Shown piece after piece: positions 9,441 to 31,778 of a DNA stretch of 64,000 bases. How positions within the stretch are numbered: the first letter of the stretch is position 1; every line of letters starts with the position of its first letter. A program made the translations under genes and the position numbers. The stretch is from Escherichia phage UPEC03, in sequence record MW250785; one strand, given 5' to 3'. The notes under the pieces are model-generated. The model searched no databases. It was not told the origin of the DNA and was given only the letters and a program-made list of their open reading frames with translations.

Positions 9441-11015
9441 ATGTCTAAGAAAAACGAATTGATGGAAAAATGGAACGATCTTCTGGAATCTCAGGAAGGT
9501 TTACCGGATATCGCTACCAAATCCAAAAAACAACTGGTTGCAGCAATTCTGGAAACTCAGGAAAAGGATGCTGATACTGATCCAGTATATCGCGACGAAA
9601 AAATCATTGAATCCTTCGGCGGTTTCCTGGCGGAAGCAGAGATCGCGGGTGATCACGGTTACGACGCAACCAACATTGCCTCTGGTAAATCCAGCGGTGC
9701 AATCACCAACATCGGCCCTGCTGTAATCGGTATGGTTCGCCGTGCGATTCCTAACCTGATCGCATTCGACATTTGCGGTGTTCAGCCTATGACTGGCCCT
9801 ACTGGTCAGGTGTTCGCACTCCGTGCTGTATACGGTAAAGATCCTCTGGCTGGCGGTACTCCTGCAAACGTTCGTGAAGCATTCCATCCGATGTTCGCTC
9901 CAGACACCATGTATTCTGGTGAAGGTGCAAACACCGCGTTTGCTGCTATCGCTTCCGGTACTGCTATCGCTTCCGGCGCTATCGTTAAGCACGTATTCCA
10001 GGAAACTGGTATCGCGTACTTCCAGAACGTAACCTCCGGCAACGTAACCGTAACTGGTGCTGATGCTGCTGCTCTGGATGCTGCTGTAATCGCAGAAAAC
10101 GAGAAAGGCACTCTGGCTGAAATTTCCGAAGGTATGGCTACCAGCGTAGCAGAACTCCAGGAAAACTTCAACGGTTCCAGCGCTAACCCGTGGAACGAAA
10201 TGGCTTTCCGTATCGACAAACAGGTTATCGAAGCCCGTAGCCGTCAACTGAAAGCACAGTATTCCGTTGAACTGGCGCAGGATCTTCGCGCTGTACACGG
10301 TATGGACGCTGACGCCGAACTGTCTGCAATCCTGGCAACTGAAATCATGCTGGAAATCAACCGCGAAATCGTTGACCTGATCAACTACACCGCGCAGATT
10401 GGTAAGACTGGTTTCACTCAGACCGTTGGCTCTAAAGCTGGTGCGTTTGACTTCCAAGATCCAGTAGATATTCGCGGCGCTCGTTGGGCTGGTGAAAGCT
10501 ATAAAGCTCTGCTGATTCAGATCGACAAAGAAGCGAACGAAATCGCGCGTCAAACTGGTCGTGGTGCTGGTAACTTCATCATCGCTTCCCGTAACGTGGT
10601 TTCCGCTCTGGCTCGTATCGACAGCGGCATCACTCCGGCAGGTCAGGGTCTCCAGAAAACTCTGAACGTAGACACCACTAAAGCGGTATTCGCTGGTGTA
10701 CTGGGTGGCACTTACAAAGTGTACATCGACCAGTACGCTCGCCAGGATTACTTCACCGTGGGCTACAAGGGTGATAACGAAATGGATGCTGGTATCTACT
10801 ACGCTCCATACGTTGCGCTGACTCCGCTGCGTGGTTCTGATCCTAAGAACTTCCAGCCAGTAATGGGCTTCAAAACTCGTTACGGTATCGGTATCAACCC
10901 GTTTGCGAACTCTCGCTCTCAGGCTCCGGCAGATCGTATCACCTCTGGTATGATCAGCAAAGAAATGTGCGGTAAAAACGCATACTTCCGCCGCGTGTGG
11001 GTTAAGGGCTTATAA
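9441..11015 (+). CDS. 23: Major capsid protein gp23
   Basis: 524 aa; extensive identity to recalled T4 gp23 (GPAVIGMVRRAIPNLIAFDICGVQPM, YYAPYVALTPLRGSDPKNFQPVMGFKTRYGIGINPFA). Confidence 0.97.
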   Translation: MSKKNELMEKWNDLLESQEGLPDIATKSKKQLVAAILETQEKDADTDPVYRDEKIIESFGGFLAEAEIAGDHGYDATNIASGKSSGAITNIGPAVIGMVRRAIPNLIAFDICGVQPMTGPTGQVFALRAVYGKDPLAGGTPANVREAFHPMFAPDTMYSGEGANTAFAAIASGTAIASGAIVKHVFQETGIAYFQNVTSGNVTVTGADAAALDAAVIAENEKGTLAEISEGMATSVAELQENFNGSSANPWNEMAFRIDKQVIEARSRQLKAQYSVELAQDLRAVHGMDADAELSAILATEIMLEINREIVDLINYTAQIGKTGFTQTVGSKAGAFDFQDPVDIRGARWAGESYKALLIQIDKEANEIARQTGRGAGNFIIASRNVVSALARIDSGITPAGQGLQKTLNVDTTKAVFAGVLGGTYKVYIDQYARQDYFTVGYKGDNEMDAGIYYAPYVALTPLRGSDPKNFQPVMGFKTRYGIGINPFANSRSQAPADRITSGMISKEMCGKNAYFRRVWVKGL

Positions 11016-11040: not shown

Positions 11041-11068
11041 AAGGGAACCTTCGGGTTCCCTTTTTGTT
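11041..11068 (+). terminator. Intrinsic terminator after gene 23
   Basis: aaagggaacc-ttcg-ggttcccttt hairpin followed by T-run. Confidence 0.8.
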
Positions 11069-11070
11069 TA

Positions 11071-11078
11071 TATAAATA
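11071..11078 (+). promoter_or_regulatory. T4-type late promoter TATAAATA (upstream of GIY-YIG gene)
   Basis: Exact TATAAATA directly after gene 23 terminator. Confidence 0.55.
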
Positions 11079-11101
11079 ATGAAAACTATTGAGGCTATAT
11101 T

Positions 11102-11737
11102 ATGAAACATATAATTTATAAAATAACAAACAAGATAAACGATAGAATCTATATCGGCGCACATTCGACAGATGATATTAACGATTCATACATGGGTTCT
11201 GGTAAAGCAATCAAAGCGGCTCAACGGAAATATGGAATTGAGAACTTCGTAAAAGAGATCTTGTTCGTGTTTGATACAAGCGAAGAGATGTATGAAAAGG
11301 AAAGGGAGATTGTAAACCTAGATTTCGTCAATCGTCCAGATGTGTACAATATGGGCGTGGGTGGTTCTGGTGGCCCTATGCTGGGAATGTTTCATTCAGA
11401 AGAAAAGAAACATGAAATCTCCAAAAGAACTCGTGAAAGAATGACACCAGAAGTAAAAGAACGCCTTTCAAAAATAAAAACAGGAAAGAAACAATCGGAA
11501 GAATCCAACAGGAAGCGTTCAGAGACTATCAAAGCTATGTACAAGGGTTCTGCATTCGACAGAACCGGATCTAAGCTCACAGACGCACACAAGGCCAAAA
11601 TAAGCCGTTCTGTGTCGATAGATGGAGTTGTTTACGCAAGCGGTTCCGATGCTTCTAAAGCGTTGGGGCTTTCTCGATCTGGCCTTGATTACCGTTTAAA
11701 GAGTGACAAATTTCCTGAATGGAAATTCGTTGCATAA
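11102..11737 (+). CDS. GIY-YIG homing endonuclease (seg-like)
   Basis: N-terminal YKITNKINDRIYIGAHS…MGSGK GIY-YIG motif; AT-rich; sits between genes 23 and 24 where T4 carries segD; TATAAATA late promoter upstream. Confidence 0.8.
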   Translation: MKHIIYKITNKINDRIYIGAHSTDDINDSYMGSGKAIKAAQRKYGIENFVKEILFVFDTSEEMYEKEREIVNLDFVNRPDVYNMGVGGSGGPMLGMFHSEEKKHEISKRTRERMTPEVKERLSKIKTGKKQSEESNRKRSETIKAMYKGSAFDRTGSKLTDAHKAKISRSVSIDGVVYASGSDASKALGLSRSGLDYRLKSDKFPEWKFVA

Positions 11738-11775
11738 ATAAACAATATACTCCCTATAATTCAGGAACCAAAGAA

Positions 11776-13074
11776 ATGAGTGATAAACACTACACAATTC
11801 ACAAGTTGATGCGTCAGTCTGCGCTTCCGTCTGGTAAACGAGAAAAAGTTATCAACGAAGCAACAGGCACGACCGACATCAACGTACAGAACACGCGCCC
11901 AGAACTGGTTTCTTTGACTCGCGCGGTTAACAACCTGATCTATCATGAACTGGTTGCTGTACAAGAAACAGAACTCCCTGTTGCAACACTGTTCGGTGTT
12001 CGCTATCGCAACCCTAACGGTGATATGACTTTCTCCAGTGCTGCAACCTATTCAGGCCGAATCTCTGGACGTACAGACATCGACGAAATCGATCTGACTA
12101 AAGCCTACGTTAAAGGTGATTTGTTCAAGCATGACGGCACTGACGTTGTTTATGAGGTTATCGAACCGATTACCCTGAACACTCTGGATACTGACAAAGA
12201 CACCGCGATCATGAAAGCTGTGTTCCAAAGCAAAATTCGACTGGTGAGTGAAGCCGCTGACACTTCTAAGTATGAAACCAGCGAAGATATCGCGTCAACC
12301 TCCTTCCAGATGGATCGCTGGAATATTCCGGTACGTTCGCGTAAGTTTAAAACCGAAATGACGGTTGAACTGATGCAGGATTTGGAAGCGAACCAGTTCG
12401 AAGCTGATGGGGTGATCGAAGACATCCTGGGAACCGTGGCAAGTGAAGAAGTCAACAAAGACATTATTCAAACACTGATCACCGTTTCCAAACGTTACAA
12501 CGTTGATGGACTCGTTACGGATGGTATTTTTGACGGTACTACCGCATACACCGCGAAGGATGCTCCAGCATTGGGTCGTATCCTGTATCAATTAGCGTGT
12601 GAAATGGGGCAGGAAATGAATAGAACGACTTCATTTGATGCTACCTACGTCCTCGCAACAGCGCGTGTTGTAGGCATTCTGGCTGCGTCTGGTTGGATGC
12701 ACGAAACCGACGAACAACACCCACTGGCAACAGGTAAGCTGAACAACGGTTATTATGTCTATACAGACACAACCAGTCCGTTCGATTATATGCTGACTGG
12801 CTGCAAATATGATCTGGGTGATATGGATCACGTAGGCTCTCTGTTCTTTGCTCCGTATACCGAAGCTGACGAAGCAGGTTCAATCAAAGTATCCGTAGAT
12901 CCGGCATCCCTGCAACCAAAAGTTGCTATTCTGATGCGTTACGGTCTTTCCGTGAACCCGTACACAGCAGAAAGCGAATCCGATCACCTGATCAAAGGTG
13001 ATGATTGGTCTGCTCTTGCAGGTAAATCTAAGCTGAGTCAGATCGTAGGTATTAAGTTACCTAAACTGGGTTAA
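11776..13074 (+). CDS. 24: Capsid vertex protein gp24
   Basis: gp23-paralog pattern (NLIYHELVAVQET, SRKFKTEMTVELMQDLEAN, ILAASGW, PYTAESE) matching T4 gp24; start at ATG (MSDKHY) within track ORF 11719. Confidence 0.9.
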   Translation: MSDKHYTIHKLMRQSALPSGKREKVINEATGTTDINVQNTRPELVSLTRAVNNLIYHELVAVQETELPVATLFGVRYRNPNGDMTFSSAATYSGRISGRTDIDEIDLTKAYVKGDLFKHDGTDVVYEVIEPITLNTLDTDKDTAIMKAVFQSKIRLVSEAADTSKYETSEDIASTSFQMDRWNIPVRSRKFKTEMTVELMQDLEANQFEADGVIEDILGTVASEEVNKDIIQTLITVSKRYNVDGLVTDGIFDGTTAYTAKDAPALGRILYQLACEMGQEMNRTTSFDATYVLATARVVGILAASGWMHETDEQHPLATGKLNNGYYVYTDTTSPFDYMLTGCKYDLGDMDHVGSLFFAPYTEADEAGSIKVSVDPASLQPKVAILMRYGLSVNPYTAESESDHLIKGDDWSALAGKSKLSQIVGIKLPKLG

Positions 13075-13120
13075 CAAGTTTTGTTTTGAGAAGACCATTA
13101 TAGTAATAAAGATCTATAAG

Positions 13121-13293
13121 GTCAAACGAGCGAAGCGAGTTTTCACGAACGAAGTGAGTGATGGGTAAGTACGATGTACTGTTTATAATATTTATATTTT
13201 ATATATAGAGAAAACAGTACATTTCCGTATACTTTTTAACCAACATTCACTCACTACGTTCGTTCATGTACTCGCTTCGCTCGTAGATTTGAC
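13121..13293. repeat. Long imperfect inverted repeat (~40-bp arms, 15-bp perfect core ACGAGCGAAGCGAGT) with nested 9-bp hairpin
   Basis: Left arm 13121-13160 pairs with right arm 13248-13293 by reverse-complement reading; inner gtactgttt / aaacagtac around an AT-rich loop; flanked by direct repeats TTTGTTTTGAG at 13080-13090 and 13322-13332. Confidence 0.7.
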
Positions 13294-13316
13294 TTCTTGA
13301 TCTAACTGGTTATAAT
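13289..13316 (+). promoter_or_regulatory. Sigma70-like promoter TTGACT-N16-TATAAT (uvsY)
   Basis: Consensus -35/-10; the -35 lies within the right arm of the long inverted repeat. Confidence 0.6.
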
Positions 13317-13339
13317 GTTACTTTGTTTTGAGGTGATAC

Positions 13340-13762
13340 ATGGCTGAACTAAAACTTGAAGATCTACAGGCTGAACTTGAAGAGGATATGCGTATTGATC
13401 CGTTGAAGTTACAAAGCGAATCAGCAGACATTCCGAAGATTTGGTCAAAATGGCTTCGATACCATTCGAATGCTAAGAAAAAACTTATTCAACTCCAGGC
13501 GAAGAAAGAAGCGATTGTAAAAGATCGGTTACTGTTCTACACTGGTAGACACGAAAGCGAAATGACCGATGTCATTTACACTGGTTCGGGTGAAATCAAA
13601 ATTGCTATCTCCGGTGATCCTAAGACCGTTGAAGTTAACAAGCTGATCCAATACTTCGAACTGATTGCAGAGTTTACCGGAAAAGCTCTGGATATCGTTA
13701 AGAACAAAGGCTACTCCATCAAAAACATGTTGGAGATCCGTAAACTTGAGAGTGGTGCATAA
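13340..13762 (+). CDS. uvsY: Recombination mediator UvsY
   Basis: 140 aa; LEDLQAELEEDM…KLQSES…SKWL…HS similar to T4 UvsY; preceded by TTGACT-N16-TATAAT promoter and GAGG RBS. Confidence 0.85.
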   Translation: MAELKLEDLQAELEEDMRIDPLKLQSESADIPKIWSKWLRYHSNAKKKLIQLQAKKEAIVKDRLLFYTGRHESEMTDVIYTGSGEIKIAISGDPKTVEVNKLIQYFELIAEFTGKALDIVKNKGYSIKNMLEIRKLESGA

Positions 13763-13763
13763 A

Positions 13764-13946
13764 ATGGCAGAAGAATTTGATTGCAAATGCGTTGTGTGCA
13801 AACAACCGATGAACTCCCGTAATACGGCGTTTGTCAATGAAGCTGGCCCGATCTGCGGTGTCGTATGTTTGCAATATCTCAACGAAAGGAATGATCGCGG
13901 TATCAATGAAGCCGACGATCTGAACGAAGTTCAAATGTTGCTATAG
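13764..13946 (+). CDS. Small Cys-rich (zinc-ribbon-like) protein, uvsY-distal
   Basis: 60 aa ORF, ATG overlapping uvsY stop; CKCVVCK…CGVVC motif. Confidence 0.5.
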   Translation: MAEEFDCKCVVCKQPMNSRNTAFVNEAGPICGVVCLQYLNERNDRGINEADDLNEVQMLL

Positions 13947-29664: not shown

Positions 29665-31778
29665 AAGTAGAAAAACGCGACGGCAAAACCGTTGATTTTG
29701 ATAAAGAAAAAATCCGTATTGCTGTAGAAAAAGCTGGCGGGACTATGACGGATGCTGATGCCGCAATCATGCTGGTTCAGTACAATCAGATCCGTGATGG
29801 TAGCGCAATGAAGATCGCCCGTATCCAGGAACTCGTTGAAGAATCCCTGATGAAAACGAACCCAGCGGTCGCCCGTGCATACATCGAATATCGCCACGAT
29901 CGCGATATTGCCCGTGAACAGAAAAGTAAGCTGTTCAAAGATATCTCCGGCATGGTGAATCTGTCCAACAAAGAGATCACCAACGAGAACGCAAACAAAG
30001 ACGCACGGGTATTCCCGACACAGCGTGATTTGCTGGCGGGTATTGTAGCGAAGCATTTCGCCCGTAATCATATCCTTCCGAAACATATCGTAGAAGCGCA
30101 TGACTCCGGCGACATCCATTATCACGATCTGGACTATAGCCCGTTCACCCCTTACACTAACTGCTGTCTGGTTGACCTGAAAGGTATGCTGGAGAACGGT
30201 TTCAAGATGGGTAACGCGGATATTGAACCGCCTAAATCGATCGGTGTTGCTACCGCTCTCATGGCACAGATCACCGCACAGATTGCCTCTCACCAGTACG
30301 GCGGGACAACCTTTGCAAACGTGGATAAAGTGCTGGCTCCATACGTTGAAATGACTTTCCAGAAGCACGTAAAAGAAGCCAGAAAATATAACGTTAGCGA
30401 AATCAAGCGATATGCTTTAGAAAAGACTGAAAAAGATGTTTTCGATGCGTTCCAGTCTTACGAATATGAAGTTAACACCCTACATACTGCCAATGGTCAA
30501 ACCCCATTCGTTACCATCACTTTCGGTACTGGATTGGGTAAGTTCGAGCGCATGATCCAGAAAGCGATTCTAAAAAACCGTATTCGCGGACTGGGTAAAG
30601 AGGGTATCACTCCGGTATTCCCTAAACTGGTTATGTTTATGGAAGATGGTATTAATTTACATCCTGACGATCGCAACTATGACATCAAACAACTTGCCCT
30701 GGAATGTGCTTCTAAACGCATGTACCCAGATATCATTAGTTCAGCTAACAACCGTGTTATTACTGGTTCTAGTGTTCCTGTATCTCCTATGGGTTGTCGC
30801 AGTTTCCTTAGCGTGTGGCATGATGATAACGGTAATGAAGTTCTTGATGGACGTAATAACCTGGGTGTGGTGACAATCAACCTCCCACGCATCGCTATTG
30901 AAGCGGAAGCACAGGAAGAAGAAGACGCGCACGACGCATTCTGGCGCATCCTTGATGAACGTCTGGAACTGTGTTTTGAAGCCCTGATGACTCGTATCGA
31001 AAGCCTACGCGGTGTTAAAGCCAGTGTTGCGCCTATCCTGTACACAGAAGGTGCTTTTGGTGTCCGACTGAAACCGGATGATGAAATTCTGGAACTGTTC
31101 AAAAATGGGCGTAGCTCTATCAGTCTGGGTTATATTGGACTGCATGAAACGCTGCTGATGTTTGGCTCAGGCCAACACCCATTTGATCGCATCGGCTCCC
31201 AGAAATTAGGTCGATTGATCATTGAATATCTCCGCGCTGCAACCGAAGCATGGAAGAAGAAAACAGGATATGGTTTCAGCCTGTATTCAACCCCTGCGGA
31301 ATCTCTCTGCCATCGCTTCTGTAAGCTGGACTTTGAGAAGTTCGGAAGCGTCAAAGGTGTCACGGATAAAGGCTGGTACACAAACAGTTTCCATCTGGAC
31401 GTTGATCGCAAGGTAACACCGTTCGAGAAAATCGACTATGAAGCCGATTATCATTACATCGCTACTGCTGGTCATATCAGTTACGTTGAATTCCCTGATA
31501 TGAAAAACAACCTGCAAGCCCTGGAAAAAGTCTGGGATTATGCGATGGAAAAACTGGACTACTTCGGAACTAACCTTCCGGTCGATAAGTGTTTTGTATG
31601 TGGCTCTGATGACGAGTTCACGCCTACAGAAGAGGGTTTCCACTGTAAGCACTGCGGTAATCACGATCCGGCTAAAATGAATGTAACTCGTCGTACTTGC
31701 GGATATCTGGGCGCTGCTGAACGTCCGATGAACAAAGGTAAACAAAACGAAATCATTCACCGTGTGAAACATAACTAA
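29661..31778 (+). CDS. nrdD: Anaerobic ribonucleoside-triphosphate reductase NrdD
   Basis: 705 aa; N-terminal ATP-cone (VEKRDGKTVDFDKEKI), C-terminal Zn-ribbon CxxC…CxxC and glycyl-radical region (RRTCGYLG); uninterrupted ORF. Confidence 0.93.
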   Translation: MKVEKRDGKTVDFDKEKIRIAVEKAGGTMTDADAAIMLVQYNQIRDGSAMKIARIQELVEESLMKTNPAVARAYIEYRHDRDIAREQKSKLFKDISGMVNLSNKEITNENANKDARVFPTQRDLLAGIVAKHFARNHILPKHIVEAHDSGDIHYHDLDYSPFTPYTNCCLVDLKGMLENGFKMGNADIEPPKSIGVATALMAQITAQIASHQYGGTTFANVDKVLAPYVEMTFQKHVKEARKYNVSEIKRYALEKTEKDVFDAFQSYEYEVNTLHTANGQTPFVTITFGTGLGKFERMIQKAILKNRIRGLGKEGITPVFPKLVMFMEDGINLHPDDRNYDIKQLALECASKRMYPDIISSANNRVITGSSVPVSPMGCRSFLSVWHDDNGNEVLDGRNNLGVVTINLPRIAIEAEAQEEEDAHDAFWRILDERLELCFEALMTRIESLRGVKASVAPILYTEGAFGVRLKPDDEILELFKNGRSSISLGYIGLHETLLMFGSGQHPFDRIGSQKLGRLIIEYLRAATEAWKKKTGYGFSLYSTPAESLCHRFCKLDFEKFGSVKGVTDKGWYTNSFHLDVDRKVTPFEKIDYEADYHYIATAGHISYVEFPDMKNNLQALEKVWDYAMEKLDYFGTNLPVDKCFVCGSDDEFTPTEEGFHCKHCGNHDPAKMNVTRRTCGYLGAAERPMNKGKQNEIIHRVKHN

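Follow-up and report, generated by a model that had tools for sequence, protein, structure and literature searches.

A three-copy compound hairpin element in RB43-type T4-like phages, a candidate DNA-unwinding site and replication origin

The spacer between gp24 and uvsY carries one copy (copy A) of a compound hairpin element that marks three loci in RB43-type phages. Based on positional, physical and comparative evidence, we tentatively propose, as a reading that is possible rather than probable, that this element is a three-copy DNA-level unwinding and hairpin-extrusion site and a candidate replication origin in these T4-like phages. Its anatomy runs from an outward promoter through two top-strand mini-hairpins, an AT-rich central hairpin and two bottom-strand mini-hairpins to a second outward promoter. 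No description of the element was found in the literature on RB43 origins, inverted repeats or the motif, nor in genome reviews of T4 relatives. The features of copy A are given below in positions of the window, the whole 64-kb stretch of DNA that was analyzed.

11719-13074, plus strand: gp24, capsid vertex gene (late), left neighbour
13075-13339, unstranded: gp24/uvsY intergenic region (265 bp), with copy A and its two flanking promoters
13080-13090, plus strand: direct repeat TTTGTTTTGAG, left copy; its complement is approximately +1 to +11 of the leftward transcript
13097-13125, minus strand: leftward sigma-70-type promoter TTGACC-17-TATAAT, 11 of 12 consensus matches
13124-13142, plus strand: mini-hairpin hp1, with the 15-mer ACGAGCGAAGCGAGT at 13126-13140
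13143-13161, plus strand: mini-hairpin hp2, with the 15-mer ACGAACGAAGTGAGT at 13145-13159
13174-13222, unstranded: central hairpin, 11-bp stem 13174-13184 / 13212-13222, loop 13185-13211
13206-13233, plus strand: weak internal promoter-like site TAGAGA-16-TATACT; each of the three copies has one, with 9 of 12 matches
13233-13242, plus strand: conserved asymmetric box TTTTTAACCA, right of the central hairpin
13249-13263, minus strand: mini-hairpin hp2' (ACGAACGTAGTGAGT on the minus strand, GTA loop)
13270-13284, minus strand: mini-hairpin hp1' (ACGAGCGAAGCGAGT on the minus strand)
13289-13316, plus strand: uvsY promoter TTGACT-16-TATAAT, sigma-70 early type, 11 of 12 consensus positions
13322-13332, plus strand: direct repeat TTTGTTTTGAG, right copy; opens the uvsY leader and runs into the Shine-Dalgarno GAGG
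13340-13762, plus strand: uvsY, recombination mediator gene, right neighbour

The gp24/uvsY spacer is 100% identical in approximately 30 phage records, in which the coding flanks are 96–99% identical; the start of gp24 is annotated in GAP161 at approximately window position 11774. The leftward promoter of copy A aims antisense into the 3' end of the late gene 24, and both of its hexamers are unchanged in 11 phages, as is the uvsY promoter, which has no MotA box. Mini-hairpin hp1 is composed of flank pairs, a tandem G.A step, a GC/CG stem and a GAA triloop (the d(GCGAAGC) core), and hp2, starting 19 nt after it, has the inner pair in the A:T version. The central hairpin (DNA fold -9.2 kcal/mol, z = -4.9) has an AT-rich loop with an invariant TATTTTATATATAGAGAAA; at 27 nt, this loop is kinetically unfavourable to classic cruciform extrusion. 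The TAnnnT-like hexamer of the internal promoter-like site is retained in most relatives, and the asymmetric box, which gives the element a polarity, was also found in the metagenomic relative L061 and, in the form TTTTAATCA, in Yersinia phage JC221 and Morganella phage Mm5. A late promoter was considered on the minus strand of GAP161-type cores (TATAAATA) and rejected on its lack of conservation in RB43, Miller and IME-CF2, as was an intrinsic terminator for late 23-24 transcripts, none being predicted in copy A.

A sequence-only reading of the window had described the spacer as an inverted repeat with a perfect 15-bp core, and this core was recovered (ACGAGCGAAGCGAGT at 13126-13140, ACTCGCTTCGCTCGT at 13270-13284) along with a second arm pair (13145-13161 / 13247-13263) that is 94% complementary. 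The same reading was correct in placing a nested hairpin inside the palindrome but not in its length of 9 bp, the perfect stem being 11 bp (ATGTACTGTTT at 13174-13184, AAACAGTACAT at 13212-13222). The uvsY promoter lies where it had been claimed and the right arm adjoins it; the -35 box starts 4 nt past that arm and is part of the extended palindrome. Both RNA and DNA predictions returned the suspected stable fold far above chance, with energies of -92.9 kcal/mol (z = -10.2) for RNA and -53.7 kcal/mol (z = -10.4) for DNA, each matched by none of 200 shuffles. The window has 8 occurrences of the 15-mer at up to 3 mismatches, 1.3 being expected, and 4 of the 8 are inside 13075-13339; no further copies of the element are present within the 64 kb. 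The additional copies that had been anticipated were located by retrieving the whole genome of a relative: close relatives have three per genome, and two of these fall beyond the window.

The three paralogous copies of close relatives occupy fixed sites between gp24 and uvsY (copy A), rnh and gp55 (copy B), and gp3 and ORF183 (copy C). Each consists of two 15-nt mini-hairpins, a hairpin with an AT-rich loop and two inverted mini-hairpins, usually between divergent sigma-70 promoters, and imperfect inverted arms are found in all three. The mini-hairpin unit has the consensus NN-Y-GA-RC-GNA-GY-GA-R-NN and is of the d(GCGAAGC) type. The three copies in GAP161 have an identical ++ / -- hairpin order and account for 10 of the 12 strict unit matches in that genome, the 2 strays being the chance expectation. 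Three copies are syntenic in RB43, RB16, Lw1, CfP1, KPN12i and ECW2, copy B is also present in JC221 and Mm5, and copy A in the distant metagenomic T4-like phages L061 and L077. All copies examined lie upstream of a rightward gene in uniform orientation, which, together with the polarity conferred by TTTTTAACCA and the internal promoter-like site, also fits a transcriptional role. Sequence has moved between copies, the right arm of copy A in Lw1 carrying copy-C sequence; the cores are nearly identical within one genome, and the inner-stem types are mosaic in ECW2 and KPN12i. The element is also where some metagenomic contigs, as well as one GenBank record, are broken. The nearest element-less phage in the UvsY-anchored survey, KP15 of a sister genus, shows at each of the three corresponding loci a long AT-rich spacer crowded with GATC: 5, 9 and 10 sites, where fewer than 1 would be expected. 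ORF183, the neighbour of copy C, has no known domain and was dropped as a candidate initiator.

The pattern of variation supports the predicted local hairpins and central stem, and not the long-range pairing of the arms. Among 17 copies the local helices are 93–100% paired with compensatory changes at 7 of 15 pairs, and 6 of the 11 pairs of the central stem are compensatory, whereas long-range pairing is broken by variation and only 1 of its 32 pairs is compensatory. In Miller and RB43, for example, an hp1 flank pair has changed from C:G to T:A while the distant partner arm is unaltered. Across 164 unique units the inner pair is GC in 90, AT in 69 and mispaired in 5, the flank pairs are 89% and 83% paired versus 60% and 44% in shuffles, and G.T wobbles are almost absent. 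The arms are 93–100% conserved in most comparisons (84% for the right arm in RB16), and the coding flanks of the more distant relatives, at 82–87%, fall below most arm values; the left arm of copy C, 39 nt long, shows 100% identity across at least 51 records from the genus. Standard DNA energy parameters give single 15-mers only 0 to -1.5 kcal/mol, no better than shuffles, which we treat as a limit of the parameter set and not as counter-evidence to the hairpins, their stability being taken from the literature and covariation rather than from the energy model. A trans-acting binding protein co-evolving with the inner stem, an idea prompted by genomes whose three copies share one stem sequence, was rejected because the stem of copy C in ECW2 differs from those of copies A and B; it follows that the conserved feature is complementarity and that the sequence is homogenized by exchange between copies.

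When the 178-kb genome is scanned in duplex windows of 30, 40 and 60 bp, the cores of the three copies take the three lowest places in stability (-26.4, -26.4 and -27.0 kcal/mol versus a mean of -40.8 and standard deviation of 3.0), and the core at 13183 is the least stable 30- and 40-bp duplex in the 64-kb window. Cumulative GC skew has only two local minima, at 30.5 and 102.5 kb, coinciding with copies B (31.0 kb) and C (100.9 kb), copy A not being at a skew switch; this argument is not independent, since skew minima in T4-type genomes also track transcription divergence. All three copies lie at or near the equivalents of T4 oriF, oriG and oriE, with the synteny for oriG and oriE approximate (2-3.5 kb). 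According to the T4 annotation, oriF is in the 5' end of uvsY, oriG is 2.2 kb from rnh and oriE is 3.4 kb from gene 3. The unwinding-prone core is upstream, between the outward promoters; the weak internal site is the only promoter-like sequence that it follows.

T4 oriF and oriG require MotA middle promoters and the T4 origins have no common motif (PMC3016281), while RB43 has neither MotA nor a middle-promoter consensus (PMC1524935). T4-style MotA-dependent origins would thus be impossible in RB43-type phages, MotA being absent, and the element would take the place of the MotA-dependent middle-promoter R-loop origins of T4. Transcription from the divergent early promoters would push negative supercoiling into the spacer between them, and the AT-rich centre would then melt. 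The central stem and four GNA mini-hairpins could snap back within each strand, keeping the bubble open and resisting single-strand binding protein, and the resulting fork- or cruciform-like junctions, together with the outward transcripts, may provide entry for helicase loader, helicase and primase on both strands and so permit bidirectional replication. Mini-hairpins of the GCGNAGC type are exceptionally stable in DNA, bind SSB poorly and are found at the priming sites of phage G4 and RSF1010 ssiA and in the N4 hairpin promoters (PMC13037366). The hairpin unit itself is generic and not origin-specific, since REP-like arrays in many bacteria and archaea contain it, as do unrelated phages.

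A promoter-linked regulatory DNA element, in which the hairpin motifs and core would be putative binding sites for phage or host proteins, is an unlikely alternative. As an operator, insulator or activator it might co-control uvsY, gp55, rnh, ORF183 and gp3 and be a MotA-independent stand-in for middle-mode control; T4 uvsY is transcribed from a MotA-dependent middle promoter (PMC3016281), for which RB43 lacks MotA (PMC1524935). In every copy examined a rightward gene follows immediately and sigma-70-type promoters flank the element closely; the polarity box and TAGAGA-16-TATACT site are conserved, and the arms are better conserved than coding sequence. The motif is nevertheless confined to three loci per genome against dozens of early promoters, and the left neighbour of copy C is a late gene without a sigma-70 promoter. 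Covariation preserves complementarity, a free loop base and the tandem G.A rather than a fixed recognition sequence, the inner stem even varying between copies in one genome (ECW2), and regulation leaves the status of the cores as the three least stable duplexes unexplained. We give still less weight to recombination, with the element as a hotspot or fragile palindrome, or as a selfish palindromic repeat homogenized by gene conversion; gp46/47 or endonuclease VII would cut the hairpins that arise in replication, and the double-strand breaks would seed recombination-dependent replication. The very strong fold, the exchange between copies (Lw1 copy A, the near-identical cores and the ECW2 and KPN12i mosaics) and the contigs and GenBank record broken inside the element would all be expected of such a site. 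T4 origins, according to Kreuzer and Alberts in 1985, reportedly coincide with recombination hotspots. A purely selfish repeat should vary in copy number and location, yet across the genus neither the sites nor the number of copies (three) varies. Two metagenomic relatives share the arrangement at gp24/uvsY, and purifying selection acts more strongly on the mini-hairpin arms than on the adjacent genes. Recombination at the element overlaps functionally with initiation there and does not exclude an origin role.

A structured RNA, acting as a 3' stabilizer or terminator of the late 23-24 transcript, a uvsY attenuator or a small RNA, is very improbable despite the strong RNA fold (-92.9 kcal/mol, z = -10.2) and the compensatory stem changes. 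Late transcripts reading through from gene 24 would include copy A, and the last hairpin of copy B is followed by a T-run and was called terminator-like; copy A has no predicted terminator, however, and copies B and C, each set between divergent genes, have no promoter to transcribe the element as a whole and none to transcribe the left hairpins. The uvsY promoter is downstream of the element, which is therefore absent from the uvsY mRNA. The GNA loops are on the top strand in the left half and on the bottom strand in the right half, so a single RNA would have purine-loop hairpins in one half and pyrimidine-mismatch versions in the other, and wobbles of the G.U type are nearly absent. No Rfam family matched: permissive settings gave for the element only spurious miRNA-type matches that score far below threshold, and searches of related arrays at the gathering threshold returned nothing relevant, no family covering arrays of the hairpin unit. 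The sequence-only reading had stated that conservation with covarying structure in all relatives would favour a regulatory RNA over a mobile element, and both conservation and covariation were found, but in what looks like an element acting at the DNA rather than the RNA level. Its preferred explanation, a MITE-like insertion that brought in the uvsY promoter and duplicated its target site, is largely refuted and in our estimate scarcely tenable. Inverted-repeat arms, three copies per genome and a direct repeat TTTGTTTTGAG that is indeed exact over 11 bp in this lineage, where by our own estimate approximately 0.01-0.05 such repeats are expected in 265 bp, would suit a mobile element, and the hairpin-pair module in unrelated viral, bacterial and archaeal genomes could reflect horizontal spread. 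In 9 of the 10 other aligned relatives, though, the repeat is only 8 bp (GTTTTGAG), the 11-bp match being due to a local GTTTT duplication beside the gp24 stop codon; its right copy is the uvsY leader and Shine-Dalgarno region, and copies B and C have no bracketing repeat, which speaks against a target-site duplication. Recent insertion is contradicted by the orthologous positions of all three copies, seen throughout the Pseudotevenvirus genomes examined and also among more distantly related T4-like phages, with no presence/absence polymorphism and no empty site (a TTTGTTTTGAGG-uvsY junction), the corresponding spacer in KP15 being a different AT-rich, GATC-rich sequence of 304 bp. Moreover, the local hairpins withstand variation and the long-range arm pairing does not, there is no associated transposase, and the promoters on both sides belong to the conserved symmetric unit.

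As a candidate origin, the element can be compared with several known systems. Herpes simplex virus oriS and oriL have an AT-rich centre, inverted hairpin-forming recognition repeats, divergent promoters and three copies per genome, and the single-strand hairpin forms of their arms are thought to be important after unwinding. The easily melted AT-rich centre between inverted repeats and divergent promoters is present in our element too, a resemblance that is architectural only, with no sequence or protein homology. We know of no UL9-like origin-binding protein in T4-like phages, and no candidate origin-binding protein was identified for the element. Copy A lies at the uvsY promoter, where T4 oriF also sits, and copies B and C, at points of transcription divergence and skew switch, are next to rnh and gene 3 and come within 2-3.5 kb of where T4 oriG and oriE would fall. 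The oriG and oriE primers of T4 are antisense to late genes, and a conserved promoter of copy A is antisense to gene 24. The RB43-type sites differ from the T4 origins in that all share one compound palindrome, and their promoters are of the sigma-70 early type whereas oriF and oriG combine a MotA middle promoter with a downstream unwinding element (PMC3016281). Hairpin units are absent from the oriE, oriF and oriG regions of T4.

RSF1010 has two mini-hairpin signals on opposite strands. The G4 origin, RSF1010 ssiA/ssiB and the N4 promoters have the same d(GCGNAGC) or C-GNA-G core at sites of unwound DNA where synthesis of a primer or RNA begins (PMC13037366). By sequence and covariation, the mini-hairpin of the element appears to form a C-GNA-G structure of the G4/RSF1010 type, its recognition by a primase or polymerase being putative. 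Beyond that core it adds a tandem G.A step and two flank pairs, its units come in pairs 17-19 nt apart, and it resides in a large dsDNA phage with its own gp61 primase and gp59 loader. The PeSL cassettes of RB49 and phi1 likewise combine an intergenic stem-loop with a sigma-70-type early promoter and are recombination substrates between copies, but they number approximately 50 per genome, occupy hyperplastic ORFan regions, have GGGG...CCCC stems and are terminator-plus-promoter units (PMC2839356). The element, also a stem-loop and promoter composite that exchanges sequence between copies, was rejected as a PeSL on its three fixed copies in core regions, GNA hairpins, bipartite symmetry about an AT-rich core and lack of a predicted terminator in copy A. 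It resembles REP and BIME sequences as short intergenic hairpin units, often in arrays; the identical 11-mers GAGCGAAGCGA and GAACGNAGTGA form arrays with a period of approximately 19-22 nt in many bacterial and archaeal genomes. In contrast to these dispersed high-copy families it is an ordered five-hairpin module with an AT-rich core and exactly three syntenic copies, lacking a RAYT-type transposase and an Rfam model. No consistent common neighbour gene was found in unrelated contigs with the hairpin unit (homing endonuclease, primase and others were checked), and the strand orientation of the unit relative to flanking genes is mixed there.

The broadest form of the proposal is that MotA-less RB43-type phages start replication at three hairpin-extrusion origins of a previously undescribed kind, built from a universal ultra-stable mini-hairpin module, Y-GA-RC-GNA-GY-GA-R, and that this module, as a structural signal in the intergenic DNA of many unrelated phages, bacteria and archaea, is a widespread new class of cis-acting DNA hairpin; we consider this joint claim doubtful as it stands. 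The hairpin unit of 15 nt is supported by covariation, recurs in viruses, bacteria and archaea and has no Rfam model, and if it proves to be a general DNA-level signal it would be relevant to replication, genome structure and repeat elements. In practical terms, the repeat breaks assemblies of phages that are therapeutic candidates and is a site of exchange between copies. For the biology of the group, an element of 170 bp marks the three most meltable sites of the genome, with the equivalents of the three most active T4 origins at or near them, and gives an experimentally testable candidate for how T4 relatives lacking MotA begin DNA replication.

The source phage is T4-like and belongs to the RB43/GAP161 group (Pseudotevenvirus), with 99.4% identity to Cronobacter phage Cronuts over 12700-13800 and 96-99% to about 40 other records. 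The gp24-uvsY spacer lies among the following features.

9441-11015: gp23
11102-11737: GIY-YIG homing endonuclease, a Seg-like ORF between gp23 and gp24 that overlaps the start of the longest gp24 ORF
up to 13074: gp24, followed by the 265-bp spacer
13125 to 13097, minus strand: leftward sigma-70-type promoter, TTGACC-17-TATAAT (11/12 matches, both hexamers invariant in 11 phages)
13340-13762: uvsY, followed by uvsY.-2 and then convergent uvsW

The spacer contains a compound palindrome in which two mini-hairpins, a central hairpin with an AT-rich loop and two inverted mini-hairpins follow one another. The 15-bp perfect inverted repeat reported in the sequence-only reading is present at 13126-13140 / 13270-13284, and a second arm pair (13145-13161 / 13247-13263) is 94% complementary. 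The inner hairpin of that reading also exists, with a stem of 11 rather than 9 bp (13174-13184 / 13212-13222) around a 27-nt AT-rich loop, and the predicted fold is far more stable than chance as either RNA (-92.9 kcal/mol, z = -10.2) or DNA (-53.7 kcal/mol, z = -10.4). The uvsY promoter (TTGACT-16-TATAAT) was found as claimed, and conserved sigma-70-type promoters diverge from the two sides of copy A: one serves uvsY to the right, and the other points leftward, antisense to late gene 24 at its 3' end, with no ORF of at least 30 aa starting within ~100 nt downstream of it. An exact 11-bp direct repeat does occur at 13080-13090 / 13322-13332; since the two transcripts take it in opposite senses, the leftward and uvsY RNAs would be complementary over their first 11 nt. 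Symmetric GATC sites at 13111-13114 and 13299-13302, invariant in 11 phages, lie in the spacers of both divergent promoters, and a Dam methylase is encoded by this phage group (GAP161_239).

The idea that the core might recur was borne out in the whole GAP161 genome (window position 1 = GAP161 123201), where motif clusters occur at exactly three intergenic loci; the 64-kb window itself holds no second copy, the others lying outside it.

GAP161 136273-136537: copy A, between gp24 and uvsY
GAP161 30988-31310: copy B, between the divergent rnh and gp55
GAP161 100908-101175: copy C, between the divergent gp3 and ORF183

Of 12 strict unit matches in GAP161, ten fall in these loci, always as top-strand units left of the centre followed by bottom-strand units right of it (++ then --), and the remaining two equal the number expected by chance. 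The cores of ~70 bp are nearly identical among copies (...ATGTACTGTTTATAATATTTATATTTTATATATAGAGAAAACAGTACATTTCCGTATACTTTTTA...) and share one orientation. The rnh and gp55 promoters lie on either side of copy B. ORF183 (1176-1967 of locus L013), always the first gene right of copy C, encodes a conserved protein of 263 aa (phrog_7322) with no Pfam domain and no assigned function.

The element occupies the same three loci in RB43, RB16, Lw1, CfP1, KPN12i, ECW2 and one 178-kb metagenomic genome. Yersinia phage JC221 and Morganella phage Mm5 have a recognisable copy B, two distant metagenomic T4-like loci a recognisable copy A (L061, in the order gp23-gp24, element, uvsY; L077, element then uvsY), and in locus L070 a copy adjoins the dNMP kinase gene (gp1). 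Among 47 T4-like loci in a UvsY-anchored survey, the ++-- arrangement upstream of uvsY was confined to Pseudotevenvirus and two metagenomic relatives. In assemblies of these phages the repeat acts as a breakpoint or an anchor: contig IMGVR_UViG_3300045988_015308 (L031, L051) starts and stops within element cores, and GenBank record PP337149.1 terminates within the element.

The gp24-uvsY spacer matches at 100% in ~30 records, with flanks at 96-99% identity. When the copy A region was compared with RB43, RB16, Miller and ECW2, the hairpin arms were 93-100% identical in most comparisons (exceptions being the right arms of RB16, 84%, and ECW2, 91%), gp24 and uvsY coding sequences 82-87% in most (ECW2 uvsY, 93%), and the element centre 64-70%, a value lowered by indels and by compensatory changes in the stem. 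At least 51 records of the genus share the 39-nt left arm of copy C at 100% identity. Inner stems come in several versions, each complementary (ATGTACTG/CAGTACAT, AACTACAT/ATGTAGTT, ATGTCTAT/GTAGACAT and ATGTCCA/TGGACAT), one version usually being common to all three copies of a genome. In ECW2 (L106-L108, L007) the inner-stem type of copy C is unlike that of copies A and B, Lw1 has copy-C sequence in the right arm of its copy A (L059; cf. its copy C, L036), and in KPN12i (L005, L104, L105) all three cores are of RB43 type within flanks of GAP161 type. The mosaic stem versions and the Lw1 arm therefore indicate that copies exchange sequence, with selection retaining complementarity and not one stem sequence.

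Each arm carries two 15-mers, ACGA[G/A]CG[N]AG[C/T]GAGT, 19 nt apart, each a small hairpin with two flank pairs, a tandem G.A/A.G step, two inner pairs and a GNA triloop. The core of the 15-mer, GCGAAGC, is a classic "extraordinarily stable" DNA mini-hairpin (PMC13037366). Nearest-neighbour DNA energies do not predict the mini-hairpins to be stable, and the case for them therefore rests on covariation and published biophysics. In an alignment of spacers from 11 Pseudotevenvirus phages, changes are compensatory inside single 15-mers, as in Miller and RB43, whose left outer unit has T:A in place of C2:G14 with the distant partner arm unchanged, and the loop base varies (GAA or GTA). RB16 and Lw1 have the two unit types swapped on the right arm, which worsens long-range pairing and leaves all mini-hairpins intact. 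Pairing in the local hairpins is 93-100% across 17 copies from 9 phages, with double changes in 7/15 pairs, and 6/11 inner-stem pairs are compensatory; variable columns of the long-range arm helices disrupt pairing, with compensation in just 1/32 pairs. In a set of 164 unique units drawn from all retrieved loci, GC forms the inner R:Y pair in 90 and AT in 69, with 5 mispaired, and flank pairs 1 and 2 are paired in 89% and 83%, vs 60% and 44% in shuffles.

By nearest-neighbour duplex energies, cores A, B and C rank 1-3 for low stability among 30-, 40- and 60-bp segments of the whole 178-kb phage genome (about -26.4 to -27.0 kcal/mol, against a genome mean of -40.8, sd 3.0), and position 13183 ranks first in the window at 30 and 40 bp. 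The gp23-homing endonuclease spacer (11060-11130) comes second in the window for low duplex stability, and first at 60 bp. Only two local minima appear in the cumulative GC skew, at 30.5 and 102.5 kb, corresponding to copies B and C. In the T4 record, oriF lies in the 5' end of uvsY and is primed by the uvsY transcript, oriG in gene 34, 2.2 kb from rnh (primer antisense to gene 34), and oriE in gene 5, 3.4 kb from gene 3 (primer antisense to gene 5). No units were found in these three T4 regions. T4 origins have no common motif, switches of transcription divergence and skew are found close to oriE, oriF and oriG, and oriF and oriG need MotA middle promoters (Kreuzer-Brister review, PMC3016281); neither MotA nor the middle-promoter consensus was found in RB43 (Nolan et al., PMC1524935). 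Klebsiella phage KP15 (Slopekvirus) has the corresponding three loci (gp24-uvsY, rnh-55 and gp3-ORF152), at L233 1191-1494, L276 2783-3086 and L277 3801-4169. These are 304-369 bp long with 18-25% GC, share the repeats TGATCTATAAT and TAGATCTGATC, and contain 5, 9 and 10 GATC (Dam) sites vs <1 expected, an oriC/P1-oriR-like signature where the source phage has the hairpin element. The three positions are thus special non-coding loci in both genera, with different cis elements.

GNA loops fall on the top strand in the left half of the element and on the bottom strand in its right half, which makes the element mirror-symmetric at the duplex level. No promoter was predicted that would transcribe the left hairpins of copies B and C, which lie between divergent genes, and the uvsY promoter sits downstream of the element. 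G.T wobbles are nearly absent from the 164 units, no Rfam family matches and no terminator was predicted in copy A. Together these observations suggest an element acting at the level of DNA rather than RNA, and despite the stable RNA fold we consider a structured RNA very unlikely. The sequence-only reading had favoured a MITE-like insertion with a target-site duplication that brought in the uvsY promoter. The direct repeat shrinks to GTTTTGAG in relatives, its longer form in this lineage being a GTTTT duplication beside the gp24 stop codon and its right copy the uvsY leader and Shine-Dalgarno region; neither copy B nor copy C is flanked by such a repeat, and the element has no presence/absence polymorphism. 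Nor was an empty site found, KP15 (sister genus, same genome topology) having a different 304-bp spacer of 18% GC. A MITE is rejected on these grounds as scarcely credible.

We tentatively regard the element as a candidate replication-origin or unwinding module acting at the DNA level. The anatomy, conservation, covariation, ease of melting and positions are shown by the data; in the mechanism we infer, divergent early transcription would pump negative supercoils into the spacer, the AT-rich centre would open, and the central stem and four mini-hairpins would fold back on each strand, stabilising the bubble. The folded mini-hairpins may resist SSB coating like other GCGNAGC hairpins (PMC13037366). 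Bidirectional synthesis by helicase and primase, or from RNA primers, would then become possible through the junctions and outward transcripts. The protein gp59 favours fork and cruciform DNA. A promoter-linked regulatory site, with promoters beside copies A and B, is a lesser possibility, and a recombination hotspot or self-maintaining palindrome, with exchange between copies, is unlikely.

The hairpin-pair pattern GAGCGAAGCGA-N5-12-AACGNAGTGA occurs in 84 stretches of IMG/VR vs ~1 expected, and in >120 stretches of very diverse bacterial and archaeal genomes vs ~9 expected (both expectations are our own estimates). Examples, from loci L017-L096 (IMG/VR) and L109-L188 (bacteria and archaea), are:

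L017 2900-2990: IMG/VR
L088 1970-2115: IMG/VR
L084 8790-8870: IMG/VR
L117 4480-4620: bacterial/archaeal
L121 1-170: bacterial/archaeal
L187 4780-4860: bacterial/archaeal
L182 2800-3010: bacterial/archaeal

Many IMG/VR matches are unrelated phages with GC from 27% to 65%; unit pairs or arrays occupy intergenic DNA of ~100-kb phages, a giant-virus MAG and T4-type terminase contigs, in mixed orientation to neighbouring genes. In one unrelated viral contig an OTKONC RNA (RF03053, 159.5 bits; L018 11957-12122) lies ~0.8 kb downstream of a mini-hairpin array. The bacterial and archaeal matches are often REP-like arrays with a period of ~19-22 nt, the 11-mers GAGCGAAGCGA and GAACGNAGTGA building hairpin arrays or palindromes in taxa that include Rhodothermales, Calditrichia, Microbacterium, haloarchaea and Pseudomonadales; Rfam has no model for them. 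This recurrence marks the unit as a generic hairpin module. Peculiar to this phage group is the element as a whole, with five hairpins in a set order, an AT-rich core and three fixed copies.

No description of unit or element was found in the searchable literature or Rfam. The feature is a conserved three-copy DNA element, not previously described, for which the replication-origin hypothesis is well motivated and directly checkable by experiment.
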